Below are positions 9,961-40,043 of a stretch of DNA of 64,000 nucleotides, piece by piece. The position numbers were made by a program, and so were the translations under genes. Source of the stretch: Escherichia coli (lineage in GTDB: Bacteria; Pseudomonadota; Gammaproteobacteria; Enterobacterales; Enterobacteriaceae); assembly GCF_050320075.1 (NCBI RefSeq), contig NZ_CP190018.1; one strand, written 5' to 3'. The notes beneath the pieces are model-generated. The model saw nothing but the letters and a program-made list of their open reading frames with translations, did not search any database and was not told the DNA's origin. How positions within the stretch are numbered: position 1 is the first letter of the stretch; each line of letters starts with the position of its first letter.

Positions 9961-11209
9961 GAGTTCCCCGCGCCAGCGGGGATAAACCGTTTGCTGAGTG
10001 TGCATACACACTTGAACATCAGAGTTCCCCGCGCCAGCGGGGATAAACCGCTATCAGTAACAACCTGGTAAATATCGGTTTTGAGTTCCCCGCGCCAGCG
10101 GGGATAAACCGTTTTCGGGGCCATAAATGGCGCTCATTTATGTGAGTTCCCCGCGCCAGCGGGGATAAACCGGGAAAATAAACGCGTTATTCCTTGATGG
10201 GTGCGAGTTCCCCGCGCCAGCGGGGATAAACCGAGCAACAGGTATTTCATATGGCCTGCCGTGCTGAGTTCCCCGCGCCAGCGGGGATAAACCGGCCAGC
10301 GGCGCTGAGTACGACGACCTGATTAAGAGTTCCCCGCGCCAGCGGGGATAAACCGTCAATACAACAGCAATGCTGGAGCTGGAAAAAGAGTTCCCCGCGC
10401 CAGCGGGGATAAACCGTGGTGGGATAGCTGCTCTGCCAGCGTGTCGCGGAGTTCCCCGCGCCAGCGGGGATAAACCGTGGGCGCAGCTCATGTATTCCAA
10501 TAAGGATATGAGTTCCCCGCGCCAGCGGGGATAAACCGAGATTCGCGCAATGTACGGTAAAGACAGCACCGAGTTCCCCGCGCCAGCGGGGATAAACCGC
10601 CATTCTTGTTGTCGTTCATCAAGCGCAGGGGGAGTTTCCCGCGCCAGCGGGGATAAACCGTTTGTTTTGATGATTTATCAGTATATGAATTGGAGTTCCC
10701 CGCGCCAGCGGGGATAAACCGATTTTTGCGCGGCCTGCATGAAACCAGTGGCAAAGTTCCCCGCGCCAGCGGGGATAAACCGGTACCGTTGAGCAATGGT
10801 GGGTAAATGGTGCTGAGTTCCCCGCGCCAGCGGGGATAAACCGATTTAGATACGGCACACAGGAATGCGCTGGATGAGTTCCCCGCGCCAGCGGGGATAA
10901 ACCGCATGGGAGTCCAGATTACAAATTCCAGAATGGGAGTTCCCCGCGCCAGCGGGGATAAACCGCGCCAGTCTGAGGTTTTCCGGTCATACATCGTGAG
11001 TTCCCCGCGCCAGCGGGGATAAACCGACCGTTGCTACACATATGATCAGGCATGTGCCGAGTTCCCCGCGCCAGCGGGGATAAACCGGACGATGAGACGC
11101 CCTGGTGTGCCGCGTTCGTGAGTTCCCCGCGCCAGCGGGGATAAACCGCGTTTAGCTCCGCAATGTTGGATATCACTGATGAGTTCCCCGCACCAGCGGG
11201 AATAAACCA
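9961..11209 (+). CRISPR. CRISPR array A: 21 repeats of 29 bp (gagttccccgcgccagcggggataaaccg) and 20 spacers of 32 bp; terminal repeat degenerate
   Basis: exact 61-bp periodicity with repeat starts at 9961, 10022, 10083 ... 11120, 11181; variant repeats at 10632 (gagtttccc) and 10754 (aagttcc); last repeat gagttccccgcaccagcgggaataaaccac. Confidence 0.98.
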
Positions 11210-28342: not shown

Positions 28343-29077
28343 ATGTCCAAACTCGATCTAAACGCCCTGAACGAACTGCCGAAGGTAGATCGCATTCTGG
28401 CGCTGGCAGAAACTAACGCCGAACTGGAAAAACTGGACGCTGAAGGCCGCGTTGCCTGGGCGCTGGATAATCTGCCCGGTGAATATGTACTTTCTTCCAG
28501 TTTCGGCATTCAGGCGGCGGTGAGCCTGCATCTGGTGAATCAGATTCGCCCGGATATTCCAGTGATCCTCACCGATACGGGTTACTTGTTCCCGGAAACC
28601 TACCGCTTTATTGACGAGTTAACGGACAAACTCAAGCTCAACCTGAAAGTGTACCGCGCTACCGAAAGCGCCGCCTGGCAGGAAGCACGTTACGGAAAAC
28701 TGTGGGAGCAGGGTGTTGAAGGCATTGAAAAGTACAATGACATCAACAAAGTCGAACCGATGAACCGGGCGCTGAAAGAACTGAATGCGCAAACCTGGTT
28801 TGCTGGCCTGCGCCGTGAACAATCCGGCAGCCGCACCAATTTACCGGTGCTGGCAATTCAGCGTGGCGTATTTAAAGTGCTGCCGATTATCGACTGGGAT
28901 AACCGAACTATTTATCAGTACCTGCAAAAACATGGCCTGAAATATCACCCATTATGGGATGAAGGATATTTATCGGTCGGTGATACCCATACAACCCGTA
29001 AATGGGAACCCGGCATGGCGGAAGAAGAAACGCGTTTCTTTGGCTTAAAAAGAGAATGTGGGTTACACGAAGGGTAA
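28343..29077 (+). CDS. cysH: phosphoadenosine phosphosulfate (PAPS) reductase; start at [14 protein letters not shown]
   Basis: 244 aa; the ORF-track N-terminal extension (28190) runs through the REP element and is not credible. Confidence 0.95.
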
Positions 29078-29094
29078 ATATTGCCGGATAAATT

Positions 29095-29132
29095 AAACGC
29101 CTCTGTCAGAAATGATGGGGGCGTTTTTATTT
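29095..29132 (+). terminator. putative cysH terminator
   Basis: aaacgcc ... ggcgttttt hairpin with T-run. Confidence 0.4.
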
Positions 29133-29341
29133 TGCGAGCAGCATTCCTGATTTTAAACGTGAACGCCGCTGGAAGAATTATCAGGTATAGAATGGCGTTG
29201 GGTGCTTGAGGCTGTCTGGCGTTAAGCATTCGCGAGGTTCCAGATGGACAAAAGCCCCAGGCGATATTTCTATCAACCTGAGGCCAGCGTTCGAACCTAA
29301 GCAATTCGAATGTTAGTCTCTTCTTTGCAGGGAGGCAAGAC

Positions 29342-29494
29342 ATGCTGACAAAATATGCCCTTGTGGCAATCATCGTACTGTGTTGTACAGTACTGGGATT
29401 CACGCTGATGGTAGGCGACTCGTTGTGTGAGTTGAGTATCAGAGAACGTGGTATGGAGTTTAAGGCAGTTCTCGCTTACGAATCGAAGAAGTAG
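29342..29494 (+). CDS. hokX: Hok/Gef-family type I toxin peptide (50 aa), hokX-like
   Basis: [50 protein letters not shown]: N-terminal TM helix plus the Hok C-terminal pattern; below the ORF-track size cutoff; GC hairpin follows the stop. Confidence 0.8.
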
Positions 29495-29688
29495 CCACCA
29501 CGCGGGGGTAAAACCCCGCGTATTGAATTGTGATGGTTTGGTCTCCTGCACCCTTTTTTAATTTATATTGTTTATGTGAATATTATGCCTATGTTTATTA
29601 TTCATATATATTACGGATGAAAATTATTTGATTATTCATAATGTAAATATTTTATTGAACGATATATATCACAGATAATTTTTAATAT

Positions 29689-32388
29689 ATGCGTAAATAT
29701 CCTTTAAGTTTACTGAAGGATAAAAATATTGTGACTTTTTTTGATTTCTGGGGAAAAACCCGACGCGGCGAGAAAGACGGGGGCGACGACTATCACCTTC
29801 TTTGCTGGCATTCGCTGGATGTAGCCGCGATGGGCTATTTAATGGTTAAAAGCAATTGCTTCGGGCTGACTGACTATTTTCGTCAACTAGGTTTCGCTGA
29901 TACGGAGCAGGCAGCACAATTTTTCGCCTGGCTATTGTGCTGGCACGATACTGGAAAATTTGCCCGCTCTTTTCAGCAACTTTACCTGCACCCACAACTC
30001 AAGGTTCCGGAAGGCGCAAGAAAGAATTACGAAAAGATCTCTCATTCAACGCTGGGCTACTGGCTGTGGCATCATTATTTAAGTGAATACGAAGAATTGC
30101 TTCCTTCATCTTCACTCTCTCCGCGCAAACTTAAACGGGTGATGGAGATGTGGATGCCCATGACTACCGGGCATCATGGTCGGCCCCCTGACCGTATTGA
30201 TGAACTGGATAATTTTCTGCCTGAAGACAAAGCTGCCGCACGAGATTTTCTCCTTGAAATCAAGGTACTGTTTCCGCTCATCGAGATCCCCGCATTCTGG
30301 GATGATGACGAGGGCATTGAACTTTTAAAACAACTTTCCTGGTATATCTCTGCAACCGTCGTACTCGCAGACTGGACGGGATCGTCAACGCGGTTTTTTC
30401 CACGCGTTGCACAGGCAATGGATATTAAAGATTACTGGCAGAAGGCTTTAGTTCAGGCTCAAAACGCCTTAACCGTCTTTCCTCCAAAAGCACAAACCGC
30501 GCCTTTCACCGGAATTAATACGCTGTTTCCTTTTATTGAGCACCCGACACCGTTACAGCAAAAGGTGCTGGATCTGGATATCAGCCAGCCTGGGCCACAG
30601 TTATTTATTCTGGAGGATGTGACTGGCGCAGGTAAAACAGAAGCGGCGCTTATCCTGGCCCACAGGTTGATGGCTGCGGGGAAAGCACAGGGTTTGTTTT
30701 TTGGCCTGCCAACAATGGCAACGGCCAATGCCATGTACGATCGGCTGGTAAAAACCTGGCTTGCTTTCTATTCGCCAGAATCCCGCCCCAGCCTGGTGCT
30801 GGCACACAGTGCCCGCACATTAATGGACCGCTTTAATGAATCACTCTGGTCCGGTGATTTAGTCGGGTCAGAAGAACCGGATGAACAAGCGTTCAGTCAG
30901 GGATGTGCGGCCTGGTTTGCCGACAGTAACAAGAAGGCGTTGCTGGCTGAAATTGGCGTCGGCACGCTGGATCAGGCGATGATGGCGGTGATGCCGTTTA
31001 AACATAATAATCTGCGGCTTCTGGGACTGAGTAACAAAATCCTGCTGGCTGATGAGATCCATGCCTGTGACGCTTACATGTCGTGCATTCTTGAAGGATT
31101 GATTGAGCGGCAGGCGCGTGGAGGAAACAGCGTTATTTTGCTTTCTGCCACGTTATCTCAACAGCAGCGCGACAAACTCGTTGCTGCCTTTGCGCGTGGT
31201 GCAGAGGGCCAGCAAGAAGCTCCGTTCCTGGAAAAGGATGATTACCCCTGGCTGACGCACGTTACGAAATCGGATGTGCATTCACACCGGGTAGCAACGC
31301 GCAAAGACGTTGAGCGTAGCGTGAGCGTGGGTTGGCTTCATAGCGAACAAGAATGTATTGCGCGTATCGAATCGGCAGTAAGTCAGGGGAAATGCATCGC
31401 CTGGATCCGGAATTCTGTCGATGACGCTATTAAGGTTTATCGTCAGTTGCTTGCCCGCGGCGTCATTCCTGCTTCCAGCCTTTCTCTGTTTCATAGCCGC
31501 TTTGCTTTTAGCGATCGCCAGCGAATTGAAACGGAAACGCTGGCACGCTTCGGTAAAAGTTGTAGTTTACAGAGATCATCGCAAGTCATTGTTTGTACAC
31601 AAGTAATTGAACAAAGTGTGGATATTGACCTGGACGAAATGATATCCGACCTGGCCCCTGTTGATTTGCTGATCCAACGGGCGGGGCGATTACAGCGGCA
31701 TATCCGCGATATTAATGGTCAGTTAAAGCGTGACGGAAAAGACGAGCGTTCCCCTCCTGAATTGCTGATTCTGGCCCCCGTCTGGGACGACGCTCCAGGT
31801 GACGAATGGTTCGGCAGTGCCATGCGTAACAGTGCATATGTCTATCCCGATCATGGACGAATCTGGCTGACGCAGCGTGTACTGCGTGAGCAAGGCGCGA
31901 TTCAAATGCCACACGCAGCCCGCCTTCTTATTGAATCAGTCTACGGTGAGGACGTGGTAATGCCGGAAGGATTTGCCCGCAGCGAGCAGGAACAAGTGGG
32001 CAAATATTACTGCGATCGCGCAATGGCTAAAAAGTTTGTGCTGAACTTCAGGCCCGGCTATGCCGCCAATATCAACGATTACCTCCCGGAAAAACTGTCG
32101 ACACGTCTGGCTGAGGAGTCTGTTTCCCTGTGGCTGTCTACCTGTATTGCCGGTGTGGTGAAGCCTTATGCCAACGGTGCTCACGCATGGGAAATGAGCG
32201 TTGTCAGAGTGCGTCGAAGCTGGTGGAAAAAACATCGGGATGAGTTTTCTTTACTGGAAGGGGATGCGTTCAGGCAGTGGTGCATTGAACAGCGGCAAGA
32301 GCCGGAGATGGCAAACGTGATTTTAGTCACCGATGACGAAAGTTGCGGGTATTCGGCTATGGAAGGATTGACTGGCAAGGTTGGTTGA
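29689..32388 (+). CDS. cas3: Cas3 HD-nuclease/helicase, type I-E
   Basis: 899-aa ORF; N-terminal HD domain, Walker A (EDVTGAGKTEAA), DEIH box (LLADEIHACD); heads the cas operon. Confidence 0.93.
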   Translation: MRKYPLSLLKDKNIVTFFDFWGKTRRGEKDGGDDYHLLCWHSLDVAAMGYLMVKSNCFGLTDYFRQLGFADTEQAAQFFAWLLCWHDTGKFARSFQQLYLHPQLKVPEGARKNYEKISHSTLGYWLWHHYLSEYEELLPSSSLSPRKLKRVMEMWMPMTTGHHGRPPDRIDELDNFLPEDKAAARDFLLEIKVLFPLIEIPAFWDDDEGIELLKQLSWYISATVVLADWTGSSTRFFPRVAQAMDIKDYWQKALVQAQNALTVFPPKAQTAPFTGINTLFPFIEHPTPLQQKVLDLDISQPGPQLFILEDVTGAGKTEAALILAHRLMAAGKAQGLFFGLPTMATANAMYDRLVKTWLAFYSPESRPSLVLAHSARTLMDRFNESLWSGDLVGSEEPDEQAFSQGCAAWFADSNKKALLAEIGVGTLDQAMMAVMPFKHNNLRLLGLSNKILLADEIHACDAYMSCILEGLIERQARGGNSVILLSATLSQQQRDKLVAAFARGAEGQQEAPFLEKDDYPWLTHVTKSDVHSHRVATRKDVERSVSVGWLHSEQECIARIESAVSQGKCIAWIRNSVDDAIKVYRQLLARGVIPASSLSLFHSRFAFSDRQRIETETLARFGKSCSLQRSSQVIVCTQVIEQSVDIDLDEMISDLAPVDLLIQRAGRLQRHIRDINGQLKRDGKDERSPPELLILAPVWDDAPGDEWFGSAMRNSAYVYPDHGRIWLTQRVLREQGAIQMPHAARLLIESVYGEDVVMPEGFARSEQEQVGKYYCDRAMAKKFVLNFRPGYAANINDYLPEKLSTRLAEESVSLWLSTCIAGVVKPYANGAHAWEMSVVRVRRSWWKKHRDEFSLLEGDAFRQWCIEQRQEPEMANVILVTDDESCGYSAMEGLTGKVG

Positions 32389-38346: not shown

Positions 38347-38985
38347 GTGTTCCCCGCGTCAGCGGGGATAAACCGACAATCAGATCACGATCGATGCCTC
38401 GCGTGAGGTGTTCCCCGCGTCAGCGGGGATAAACCGATTTTCGCAGCGGGTAACCGCGCCCGGCGATCGTGTTCCCCGCGTCAGCGGGGATAAACCGTTT
38501 ATGTGGAGTATCAGTGCCTGGGTGGAAAGGTGTTCCCCGCGTCAGCGGGGATAAACCGTGGGGCTGAGCATGGCTAAACAACCGAGGCGCGTGTTCCCCG
38601 CGTCAGCGGGGATAAACCGGTCAACTGGCACCACAGGATGATGGCGGCGAAGTGTTCCCCGCGCCAGCGGGGATAAACCGCAGGTCGACCGACTGGAGGC
38701 GGAGATTGTCGGGTGTTCCCCGCGCCAGCGGGGATAAACCGTGTTGTTTTTCTGCCGGATTAACGCGGTGCGAGTGTTCCCCGCGCCAGCGGGGATAAAC
38801 CGTTGTCGGGCTTGTTCGGCGCGGGTTGTTAACTGTGTTCCCCGCGCCAGCGGGGATAAACCGCCAGCGAAGGACTTGCTCGTGTGGTTAAAGCCGTGTT
38901 CCCCGCGTCAGCGGGGATAAACCGGACGCACTGGATGCGATGATGGACATCACTTGGAGTTCCCCGCCCCTGCGGTAGAACTCCC
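38347..38985 (+). CRISPR. CRISPR array B: 11 repeats of 29 bp (gtgttccccgcg[t/c]cagcggggataaaccg), 10 spacers of 32 bp; terminal repeat degenerate
   Basis: 61-bp periodicity with repeat starts at 38347, 38408 ... 38896, 38957; last repeat gagttccccgcccctgcggtagaactccc. Confidence 0.98.
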
Positions 38986-39005: not shown

Positions 39006-40043
39006 TCAAGACGCCTTCGCCAGCTCTTTCACCAGCGGTAGCATTATCCGTATAACATCACGGCAGCGACGTTCTATTCTTCCAGGAAGCGCCTTATCAA
39101 TATGTTGTTGATTATCAAGCCTGACATCGTGCCAGCTTGTTCCCGCAGGGAAGGCGGCGGTTTTTGCACGTTGCTGATAGCCATCCTTATTCCCAAGATT
39201 CCAGTTAGTTGCCTCCACCGAAAGTACCGCAATACCGGCTTTGTCAAAAACTTCCGCGTCGTTACAGCACCCGGTACCCTTCGGATAATTTTTATTCAAA
39301 CCCGGATTGGTCGTTGCGGCAATTCCATGACTACGCGCAATTGCCAGCGCCCTGTCGCGCGTTAATTTCCTTACTGCTTCAGGGGTTTTTACACCGCTGT
39401 TGAAATACAATTTATCGCCAACAATTAAGTTATCGAGATTAATCACCAGCAGCGTATTTTTCTTTTCGGTGTCACTCATCCGCTTGAGTAAATTCTCAGC
39501 ACCTAATTTCCCTTCCTCTTCACCACTGGTCGCCACAAATCGAATACCATACTCGGTAGGCGTATTTTTCAGGCGTTCTGCCAGTTCCAGCATGACACCT
39601 AAACCTGCGGCGTTATCATCCATTCCTTGTAACGTCAGCCCGCCGAGATTGGCATCGGCGTCAGCATCGCTCAGCGGGGCGTATGTATCCAGATGCGCCA
39701 TAATGATGATCTGCTGCGGCGCTTTGCCTTCATGAGCGGCAATCACCGTACTTCCCGTCACGTTATGCCAGCTCTTGCGATTATCGCGGGCGGTATAAAT
39801 ATACCGACTATTAAATGTCCGAATATCACTGCGATAACCCATTTGCTGAAACTGTTGGCGAATATAATCGGCAGATAACATTTCTGCAGGAGTTCCGGTC
39901 ATGCGTCCCGGAAAGAAAGTAGCAATATGTCGTGCCTGAGTATTAGCAAAATCGCCAGGTTTAGGTGACGAGGCGTGTACGGGGAGAATAAAGCATACGC
40001 CGAGCGCCAGGGCAGCGGTACGGTGGCGCAATGCGGAAAACAT
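39006..40043 (-). CDS. iap: alkaline phosphatase isozyme conversion aminopeptidase (M28 family)
   Basis: 345-aa ORF with signal peptide and M28 peptidase motifs; classical position next to the CRISPR array. Confidence 0.9.
   Translation of the reverse strand: MFSALRHRTAALALGVCFILPVHASSPKPGDFANTQARHIATFFPGRMTGTPAEMLSADYIRQQFQQMGYRSDIRTFNSRYIYTARDNRKSWHNVTGSTVIAAHEGKAPQQIIIMAHLDTYAPLSDADADANLGGLTLQGMDDNAAGLGVMLELAERLKNTPTEYGIRFVATSGEEEGKLGAENLLKRMSDTEKKNTLLVINLDNLIVGDKLYFNSGVKTPEAVRKLTRDRALAIARSHGIAATTNPGLNKNYPKGTGCCNDAEVFDKAGIAVLSVEATNWNLGNKDGYQQRAKTAAFPAGTSWHDVRLDNQQHIDKALPGRIERRCRDVIRIMLPLVKELAKAS

Follow-up and report, generated by a model that had tools for sequence, protein, structure and literature searches.

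The interval between cysH and the type I-E cas3 gene in the Escherichia coli DNA analysed here, a window of 64,000 nucleotides, holds a short open reading frame of the Hok family, and the question is what this frame represents: a complete type I toxin-antitoxin locus with its own antisense RNA, a remnant that never produces its toxin, or a toxin tied to the CRISPR-Cas operon that it adjoins. The toxin gene and its two neighbours lie as follows, with all coordinates given as positions in the window.

Stop codon at 29077, intrinsic terminator at 29095..29126: cysH, the 5' neighbour
29342..29494, plus strand: hok toxin coding sequence (HokX, published also as 'HokG'), identified by Pfam, an identical RefSeq protein and dN/dS
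ATG at 29689: cas3 (type I-E), the 3' neighbour

The toxin frame has 50 codons and encodes a single transmembrane helix at roughly residues 5-24. Against the Pfam family PF01848 (HOK_GEF), the translated product gives an E value of 6.3e-10 and covers positions 1-42 of the 42 in the model. The NCBIfam matches of the same product stay under the curated cut-offs (53 versus 89 for the HokA equivalog and 39.5 versus 73 for the Hok subfamily), and an assignment to the HokA equivalog is unjustified on these scores. RefSeq has an identical protein, WP_000956458.1, at this position in O157:H7, in a strain of 100% identity and in one that lacks cas genes, and PGAP names it 'Hok/Gef family protein'; the statement in the preliminary description that the frame is absent from the open reading frame track therefore fails for the public annotation. 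Of 5426 complete E. coli genomes, 5425 contain the region in a megablast search with 29080..29700; in each case it lies on the chromosome, with 'Hok/Gef family protein' annotated beneath the match. In the literature, hok and sokX adjoin cysH in 90% of UPEC strains; a hok gene of the cysH-iap region has been described as homologous to hokX of E. coli B (PMC7232551); and 'hokG' is the name given to the gene of WP_000956458.1 in a 2025 RNA-editing study (PMC13017025). A 2026 preprint surveying Hok proteins does not mention hokX. In general, hokX/sokX, also called 'hokG', is an already known, annotated and described locus, and it had been identified correctly beforehand: translation, Pfam, Rfam, RefSeq annotation and purifying selection agree on a 50-codon Hok-family frame between cysH and cas3, and the annotation together with the literature on the cysH-adjacent hokX bears out the reading of this frame as hokX-like.

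By scanning one genome per species with an exact pattern, a 25-base motif of the leader, 31 matches were obtained on 28 contigs, from Escherichia, Pseudocitrobacter, Kluyvera, Klebsiella, Atlantibacter, Pluralibacter, Pseudescherichia and Enterobacter. An alignment of 29 loci from about 10 genera was used for the comparisons below, and dN/dS was computed against the window copy. The hok frame is unbroken and always 50 codons long in all 29 aligned loci. The dN/dS values range from 0 to 0.17 within Escherichia and Pseudocitrobacter and from 0.04 to 0.3 overall, and the protein is identical at 50 of 50 residues across phylogroups despite synonymous changes. The hok frame is under purifying selection across genera.

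The covariance-model search proposed in the preliminary description returned a clear match: the Rfam family RF01794 ('sok') aligns with 29200..29357 over the full model (1-157) at 111.7 bits, against a gathering score of 59, with an E value of 1.4e-24. Because the matched strand is that of hok itself and the match stops close to the hok start, this family represents the hok mRNA leader rather than the antisense RNA; as evidence for Sok the plus-strand match was set aside, and Sok was mapped instead from the K-12 annotation. Several other models, among them ctRNA_p42d, PyrR and Spot42, scored below threshold in a low-threshold Rfam scan, and all of these fell on the cysH terminator and were rejected as terminator look-alikes. 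The antisense gene, its promoter and the ribosome binding site with which this promoter overlaps are as follows.

29302 to 29244, minus strand: SokX antisense RNA gene, 59 nt, identical at 57 of 59 positions to sokX of MG1655 (b4701, NC_000913.3)
29310..29315, minus strand: -10 box of the Sok promoter, TAACAT (complement of ATGTTA), separated from the SokX 5' end by 7 nt
29333..29338, minus strand: -35 box of the Sok promoter, TTGCCT (complement of AGGCAA), with a 17-nt spacer
29330..29335, plus strand: hok Shine-Dalgarno sequence, GGGAGG, 6 nt before the hok ATG, with an invariant core

The preliminary description held that a sok-like antisense RNA could not be placed by eye, and the K-12 annotation places it at these positions. 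In the SokX fold (-22.7 kcal/mol, z = -3.6), a 5' tail precedes a terminator-like hairpin, and UUUUGU comes after the hairpin. The plus-strand sequence GGAGGCAA at 29331..29338, which contains the Sok -35 box, is invariant in the 29 loci, and the spacer is free of indels; five of the six -10 positions are also invariant, giving TANCAT. The two promoter boxes are embedded in the signals of the opposite strand, in that the -35 box overlaps the hok Shine-Dalgarno sequence GGGAGG and the -10 box overlaps the first two codons of a 12-codon upstream frame (considered below). An antisense Sok RNA, complementary to the leader and with its own promoter, is thus encoded in cis at hokX, and it is predicted to be expressed in the source strain.

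A promoter and terminator consensus scan of 29000..29800, with a reporting threshold of 9/12, returned the cysH terminator, one promoter-like site of no relevance within hok, and nothing else; the promoters of hok and Sok both scored under 9/12, and no local intrinsic terminator for hok was reported. Since both promoters fall below this threshold, they were placed by homology and conservation. For hok, about 30 of 33 related loci have TAGAAT or a one-base variant at a constant spacing from GGGTGC, and no good -35 box was found, the -35 region not being conserved across the related loci. The elements of the hok mRNA placed in this way, with its predicted ends, are listed here.

29188..29193, plus strand: putative -10 box of the hok promoter, TAGAAT, 6 nt 5' of the predicted mRNA start
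29200..29560, plus strand: predicted full-length hok mRNA, comprising leader, coding sequence and 3' UTR to the T-run; position 1 of RF01794 corresponds to 29200
29200..29212, plus strand: 5' element GGGTGCTTGAGGC, equivalent to tac of the R1 hok mRNA, nearly invariant in 29 loci
29250..29261, plus strand: AAAAGCCCCAGG box, equivalent to ucb / anti-SD, the R1 equivalence being taken from the model in PMC9841398
29316..29327, plus strand: upstream arm of a long-range helix, 5' of the hok Shine-Dalgarno sequence, with its partner at 29484..29495 at the end of the coding sequence
29500..29521, plus strand: 3' GC-rich stem-loop ACGCGGGG-GTAAAA-CCCCGCGT, 6 nt past the hok stop
29540..29553, plus strand: fold-back element GGTCTCCTGCACCC, equivalent to fbi, pairing with the 5' end and followed by a T6 run at 29554..29559

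In the minimum-free-energy fold of 29200..29562 (z = -3.8), the 5' end is closed on the 3' end: GGGUGC (29200..29205) pairs with GCACCC (29548..29553), and GAGGCU.. pairs with the preceding 3' bases. The 5' element GGGTGCTTGAGGC has two alternative partners, 29548..29553 in this full-length fold and AAAGCCCC at 29251..29258 in the Rfam consensus structure. Similarly, the AAAAGCCCCAGG box can pair with the 5' end, as in the Rfam structure, or with the GAGG region, and the RNAalifold consensus selects CCCCAGG with CCUGAGG at 29278..29284. This consensus retains the 5'-3' closure, a 5' hairpin, the Sok-terminator/anti-SD hairpin, the long-range helix and the 3' stem-loop. Over the 29 loci, 97.2% of cells are paired and 15 pairs carry a compensatory change, with the caveat that the consensus structure was predicted from the same alignment on which the pairing was counted; in controls whose partners were slid by 1-3 columns, 33-49% are paired, with 0-5 compensatory pairs. 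The tac/fbi helix (helix 1) is 100% paired in the 29 loci, yet it is invariant and so carries no covariation support, and the long-range helix (RNAalifold helices 5 and 6) is 97-100% paired and mostly invariant. The stem-loop at 29500..29521, the GC-rich hairpin noted earlier after the hok stop, is conserved in the 29 loci with a compensatory CG<->UA change and, by analogy with R1, is probably the protective 3' end of the processed hok mRNA.

The coding sequence also contains an RNA-editing site, at the codon for Tyr46.

29477..29480, plus strand: UACG motif at the Tyr46 codon, a TadA A-to-I site (edited A at 29478) giving Y46C

Supplementary Table 1 of PMC13017025 lists WP_000956458.1 c.137A>G p.Y46C at 14.8% (188 of 1270 reads) and at 23.6% in UPEC isolates, and in urinary isolates Y46C editing was found to reach about 37%. 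The primers of that study and the 21-nt sequence context agree exactly with the window, the flanking sequence GUUCUCGCUUACGAAUCGAAG being identical to 29468..29488. The published editing of an identical gene means that the gene is transcribed in natural isolates, and a further implication is that a fraction of the Hok peptides has the Cys29/Cys46 pair. Tyr46 aligns with Cys46 of HokA and HokB. According to PMC12214031, those two toxins have Cys46 encoded in the DNA, HokC, HokD and HokE acquire it through TadA editing, and the toxicity of HokB requires Cys46 together with Cys29 and Cys14.

A mechanism of the R1 type can be drawn from these elements. The parts, their conservation, the fold and the purifying selection are direct observations, and transcription and editing of the identical gene are published; the order of events, the processing and the toxicity would follow the R1 paradigm. 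In this scheme, a weak promoter (-10 TAGAAT, 29188..29193) would give a stable mRNA of about 360 nt that is translationally silent while its 5' end is folded on its 3' end. Slow 3' trimming to the GC stem-loop at 29500..29521 would then allow the 5' end to re-pair with the AAAGCCCC box, and the leader would open. The 59-nt SokX (29302 to 29244), made from a stronger promoter whose -35 box lies over the hok Shine-Dalgarno sequence, would pair with the opened leader, and this pairing would block translation, trigger decay, or both. Once Sok is depleted, the 50-aa Hok peptide would be made and inserted in the inner membrane. Conversion of the Tyr46 codon to Cys by TadA editing would probably raise the toxicity. 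A published assay found toxicity for 42 of 45 Hok homologues, HokE among them, and in the literature on hokX we found no toxicity assay of the exact 50-aa peptide.

The sole remaining mechanistic question is the route into hok translation at a locus that has no classical mok start. Two elements of the leader bear on it.

29280..29283, plus strand: GAGG, the mok Shine-Dalgarno position in R1-type loci, with no start codon after it in the window allele
29310..29348, plus strand: 12-codon upstream frame, a candidate mini-mok, with ATG at 29310 and TGA at 29346..29348

In R1, hokB and hokC the mok frame begins 6-8 nt past the GAGG in the Sok target (R1 as described in PMC9841398), and the relatives in Klebsiella, Kluyvera and Pluralibacter have GAGG-N7-ATG (at -50/-51), whereas E. 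coli hokX has TCG (29292..29294) in place of this ATG. In the window there is no ATG, GTG or TTG 5-12 nt past the GAGG at 29280; in the hok frame, read upstream, the TGA at 29279 is reached before any start codon, and the -1 frame offers none either. The 12-codon frame is the sole frame that begins upstream and extends to hok; its stop and the two sense codons before it lie across the hok ATG (29342..29344) and hok codons 2-3. The preliminary description had proposed that this frame, far shorter than the classical mok, is translationally coupled to hok. The frame itself is real, it overlaps the hok start, and the classical mok is missing; coupling between the frame and hok is plausible, with the complication that the ATG of the frame doubles as part of the Sok -10 box.

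This complication leads to the main alternative, direct initiation at the strong hok Shine-Dalgarno sequence. According to this alternative, the upstream frame is a by-product of the Sok -10 box (the CAT of TAACAT), hok is initiated at its own Shine-Dalgarno sequence once the mRNA has been processed, and Sok masks or refolds the leader and promotes RNase III-type decay instead of blocking a leader peptide. The ATG at 29310..29312 is exactly the complement of this CAT (-10 positions 4-6), no recognisable Shine-Dalgarno sequence precedes it, and the frame of the peptide is not conserved, since it differs by sublineage (+1 in hokX, in frame in hokE and the Pseudescherichia type, or a 32-codon version) and in Pluralibacter stops 14 nt short of the hok ATG. 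Against the by-product explanation, the frame from the homologous upstream ATG reaches the hok start in 28 of the 29 loci despite indels, and a synonymous change in hok, CTG->CTA, keeps the stop of the upstream frame in place (TGA->TAA). In addition, the G of the ATG corresponds to a C at -10 position 4 that is non-consensus, yet invariant. The first of these points has to be read against chance: by our estimate a stretch of 10-11 codons is open about 60% of the time and there are only about 5 independent arrangements, so the conservation of the upstream frame is not significant. In R1, mok need be translated only up to the hok start, and hok is not translated without upstream translation of mok (PMC9841398); this behaviour argues against direct initiation, and by analogy with it a short mok is mechanistically sufficient. 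Weighing these points, we give entry through the 12-codon frame, the least certain step of the mechanism, slightly less than an even chance, and direct initiation with the frame as a by-product is a serious competitor that we also place somewhat below even. In E. coli the hokX/hokE subfamily is without the classical mok start kept by its Klebsiella and Kluyvera relatives, and its sole upstream frame begins within the Sok -10 box, which makes for a small, testable mechanistic question.

The state of the locus in the population bears on whether it is alive at all. The coding sequence and 3' UTR (29342..29560) are found in 4220 of 5426 complete genomes, and in 3419 of these genomes at least 80% is covered in one piece. 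One otherwise identical strain carries IS1 with a 9-bp duplication of 29512..29520, and other genomes carry IS186/IS421 at about 29516; these IS186/IS421 sites mirror the K-12 chromosome, in which copies of IS186 lie 19-20 bp past hokC and hokE (19 bp past the hokE stop). The GGGG-N6-CCCC hairpin is a recurrent IS target, and insertion there severs the fold-back element. The window copy has no insertion, and every element is present.

These losses raise the possibility that the locus is a remnant which never produces Hok, translationally dead through loss of the mok start, like the 'inactive' hok loci of K-12. In keeping with this, the classical mok ATG has become TCG, about 22% of complete E. 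coli genomes are without the hok coding sequence and others have IS1 or IS186 in the 3' hairpin, and the chromosomal hokA, hokB and hokC gave no post-segregational killing in published tests, as summarised from the literature in the preprint. A dead gene is hard to reconcile with the strong purifying selection and with a protein unchanged across phylogroups; moreover, all of the regulatory RNA elements are conserved, with compensatory changes, and the mRNA is expressed and is edited at a site that is relevant only to the protein. We therefore consider a remnant unlikely. The best explanation overall, which we hold with high confidence, is that the locus is an intact hokX/sokX type I toxin-antitoxin system with an R1-type mechanism.

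The position of this intact hokX/sokX next to cas3, which the preliminary description had singled out, invites a functional reading. In that reading the toxin is tied to the type I-E cas operon as an abortive-infection backup, as an addiction module that stabilises cas, or as a transcriptional input to cas3. The gene does stand directly upstream of cas3, the elements of the hok mRNA end about 130 nt before the cas3 ATG, and no local terminator was found in the scan. A comparison with K-12, which had also been proposed beforehand, is suggestive in the same direction: in K-12-type genomes the leader and sokX are kept and the homology to the window ends exactly after the hok ATG, at 29344, with the K-12 variant of cas3 about 90 nt further on, so that the break between two variants of the cas operon falls exactly there. 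Synteny speaks against a tie of this kind. When CysH, Cas3 and Iap were searched by tblastn against the related loci, the immediate 3' neighbour of cysH proved to be hok in E. coli, E. whittamii, other Escherichia, Pseudocitrobacter, Kluyvera, Atlantibacter and Pluralibacter. For the most part iap comes next in these cysH-hok loci and cas genes are missing; this cas-free arrangement is seen in E. coli strains, E. whittamii, Pseudocitrobacter, Kluyvera, Atlantibacter and Pluralibacter, and an E. coli isolate from a dog has the order cysH-hok-iap. The presence of hok after cysH in genera and strains without cas means that hokX is anchored to cysH and is older than the cas block that lies between hokX and iap. 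In addition, the leader is found in 5425 of 5426 E. coli genomes whatever their cas content, and a published genome-wide survey places hok near defence systems in 12% of cases against 9.4% expected by chance, which is not an enrichment. On the synteny and this enrichment test the linkage to CRISPR was rejected, and we regard it as extremely improbable. The earlier observation that hokX adjoins cas3 stands, and the placement has no apparent function. It appears that the adjacency is incidental and was set by the insertion site of the cas block, and the proximity of hokX to CRISPR-Cas is no evidence of an association between toxin and defence.

A narrower idea concerns transcription alone. Transcription of hok may continue into cas3, in which case the hokX leader and SokX would modulate cas3 expression, and in K-12-type strains SokX might act on a leader-cas3 transcript, the truncated hok leader and the Sok target lying only about 90 nt upstream of cas3 in those strains. 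We consider this very improbable; if it were true, the action of SokX on the leader-cas3 transcript would give a function to the orphan sokX of K-12.

Based on these results, the practical value of the locus lies in a clean map of all the parts of an intact hokX/sokX, of which K-12 has only a remnant. Beyond correct annotation its importance is small, since it belongs to the best-studied family of type I toxin-antitoxin systems and is present in most E. coli.

Among known systems, the E. coli hokX/sokX (sokX of K-12 being b4701) is the same locus, as judged by the position after cysH, the protein WP_000956458.1 and the 57 of 59 identical Sok positions. K-12 has only the leader and sokX, whereas the window copy is intact, and the hokX of E. 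coli B has been reported as disrupted by an IS element (PMC7232551), which the window copy does not contain. The closest named paralogue is hokE/sokE of K-12, whose toxin is identical at 38-39 of 50 residues and which has in common with hokX the Sok hairpin core GTTGATAGAAATATC, the -10 box TANCAT, the -35 box TTGCCT and the UACG editing context at Tyr46. It differs in having 4 extra nucleotides between the Shine-Dalgarno sequence and the ATG, GGGG where hokX has GAGG, and a frame from the upstream ATG that is in frame with the toxin (a 62-aa extension) instead of a 12-codon frame at +1. The hokC/mokC and hokB/mokB systems of K-12 belong to the same family and have a mok start right after the GAGG (GAGG-N6/8-ATG), like the Klebsiella and Kluyvera relatives of hokX, whereas E. 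coli hokX is without it; mokC is in frame with hokC (69 aa), and mokB lies in the -1 frame (55 aa). Plasmid R1 hok/sok (parB), compared here by its description in PMC9841398, resembles hokX/sokX in the Hok/Gef toxin, the Sok RNA antisense to the leader, the tac/fbi fold-back, the anti-SD box and the protective 3' stem-loop. The mok of R1 has 70 codons, starts 8 nt after the GAGG and overlaps hok, whereas the window has a 12-codon frame that starts 32 nt before hok; and R1 hok/sok is borne on a plasmid and acts by post-segregational killing, whereas hokX is a fixed chromosomal gene.

By comparing the window with K-12 (L002, position 3265; L007), the limit of the shared leader region may be defined precisely. 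The homology ends exactly behind the hok ATG (29344/29345), and therefore the boundary of two type I-E cas-operon variants lies inside hok. Past this start codon, K-12 carries 92 unrelated bases and then its own cas3 variant. What stands directly upstream of cas3 in K-12 is an orphan hok leader with sokX and a 5-codon stub (ATG TGT ATA TCA CTG TAA). In the window itself, the type I-E repeat (GAGTTCCCCGCGCCAGCGGGGATAAACCG and a variant) occurs in two CRISPR arrays, which are listed here together with iap.

10510..11148, the larger CRISPR array, approximately 18 kb upstream of cysJIH
38406..38559, a short CRISPR array of approximately 3 repeats, located between iap and the cas operon, which it follows directly
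39006..40043, minus strand, iap

A separate observation concerns L027 (JAEWTL010000007.1), a 3.3-kb contig labelled "MAG: Bacillota bacterium", on which the hok leader of E. coli (98% identity over 187 nt) is followed by a K-12-type cas3. This contig is almost certainly an Escherichia fragment mis-binned as Bacillota.

In the Rfam search, the match to RF01794 ("sok antitoxin") lies on the hok-sense strand at 29200..29357 (+) and covers the leader in full, as far as the hok start region; therefore, what this family detects is the hok leader rather than the 59-nt antisense RNA. Strand assignments made with RF01794, such as the "sok_15/sokX, 152 nt" of an EHEC study, denote the mRNA leader. A sub-threshold ctRNA_p42d match at 29093..29135 (+), with 24.9 bits where the gathering score is 50, coincides with the cysH intrinsic terminator and was judged to be a terminator look-alike.

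The classical mok start, GAGG-N7-ATG at 50-51 nt before hok, is kept in hokX relatives of Klebsiella (L029, L034, L035, L036 and L039), Kluyvera (L015 and L033) and Pluralibacter (L021), and this start usually shares the reading frame of hok, so that a fusion frame of 67 aa results. The loci of E. coli, Pseudocitrobacter and Atlantibacter, together with hokE-type loci, are without this start. Some genomes carry tandem duplicates, with two hokE-type or hokX-type loci approximately 500-1200 bp apart: L018 and L031 (E. coli SCPM-O-B-8794; Escherichia sp. MOD1-EC7003) and L035 (Klebsiella spallanzanii).

In the hok locus, the 3' GC hairpin at 29500..29521 (GGGGG-TAAAA-CCCC) is a recurrent IS target; the sequences concerned are L005, which is NZ_CP180393.1, L040 and L041. 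In one strain, an IS1 insertion is flanked by a 9-bp duplication of 29512..29520, and in other strains the insertion point of IS186/IS421 is at approximately 29516. Similarly, the hokC and hokE loci of K-12 have IS186 copies just downstream, which parallels the IS insertion in the hokX 3' hairpin.
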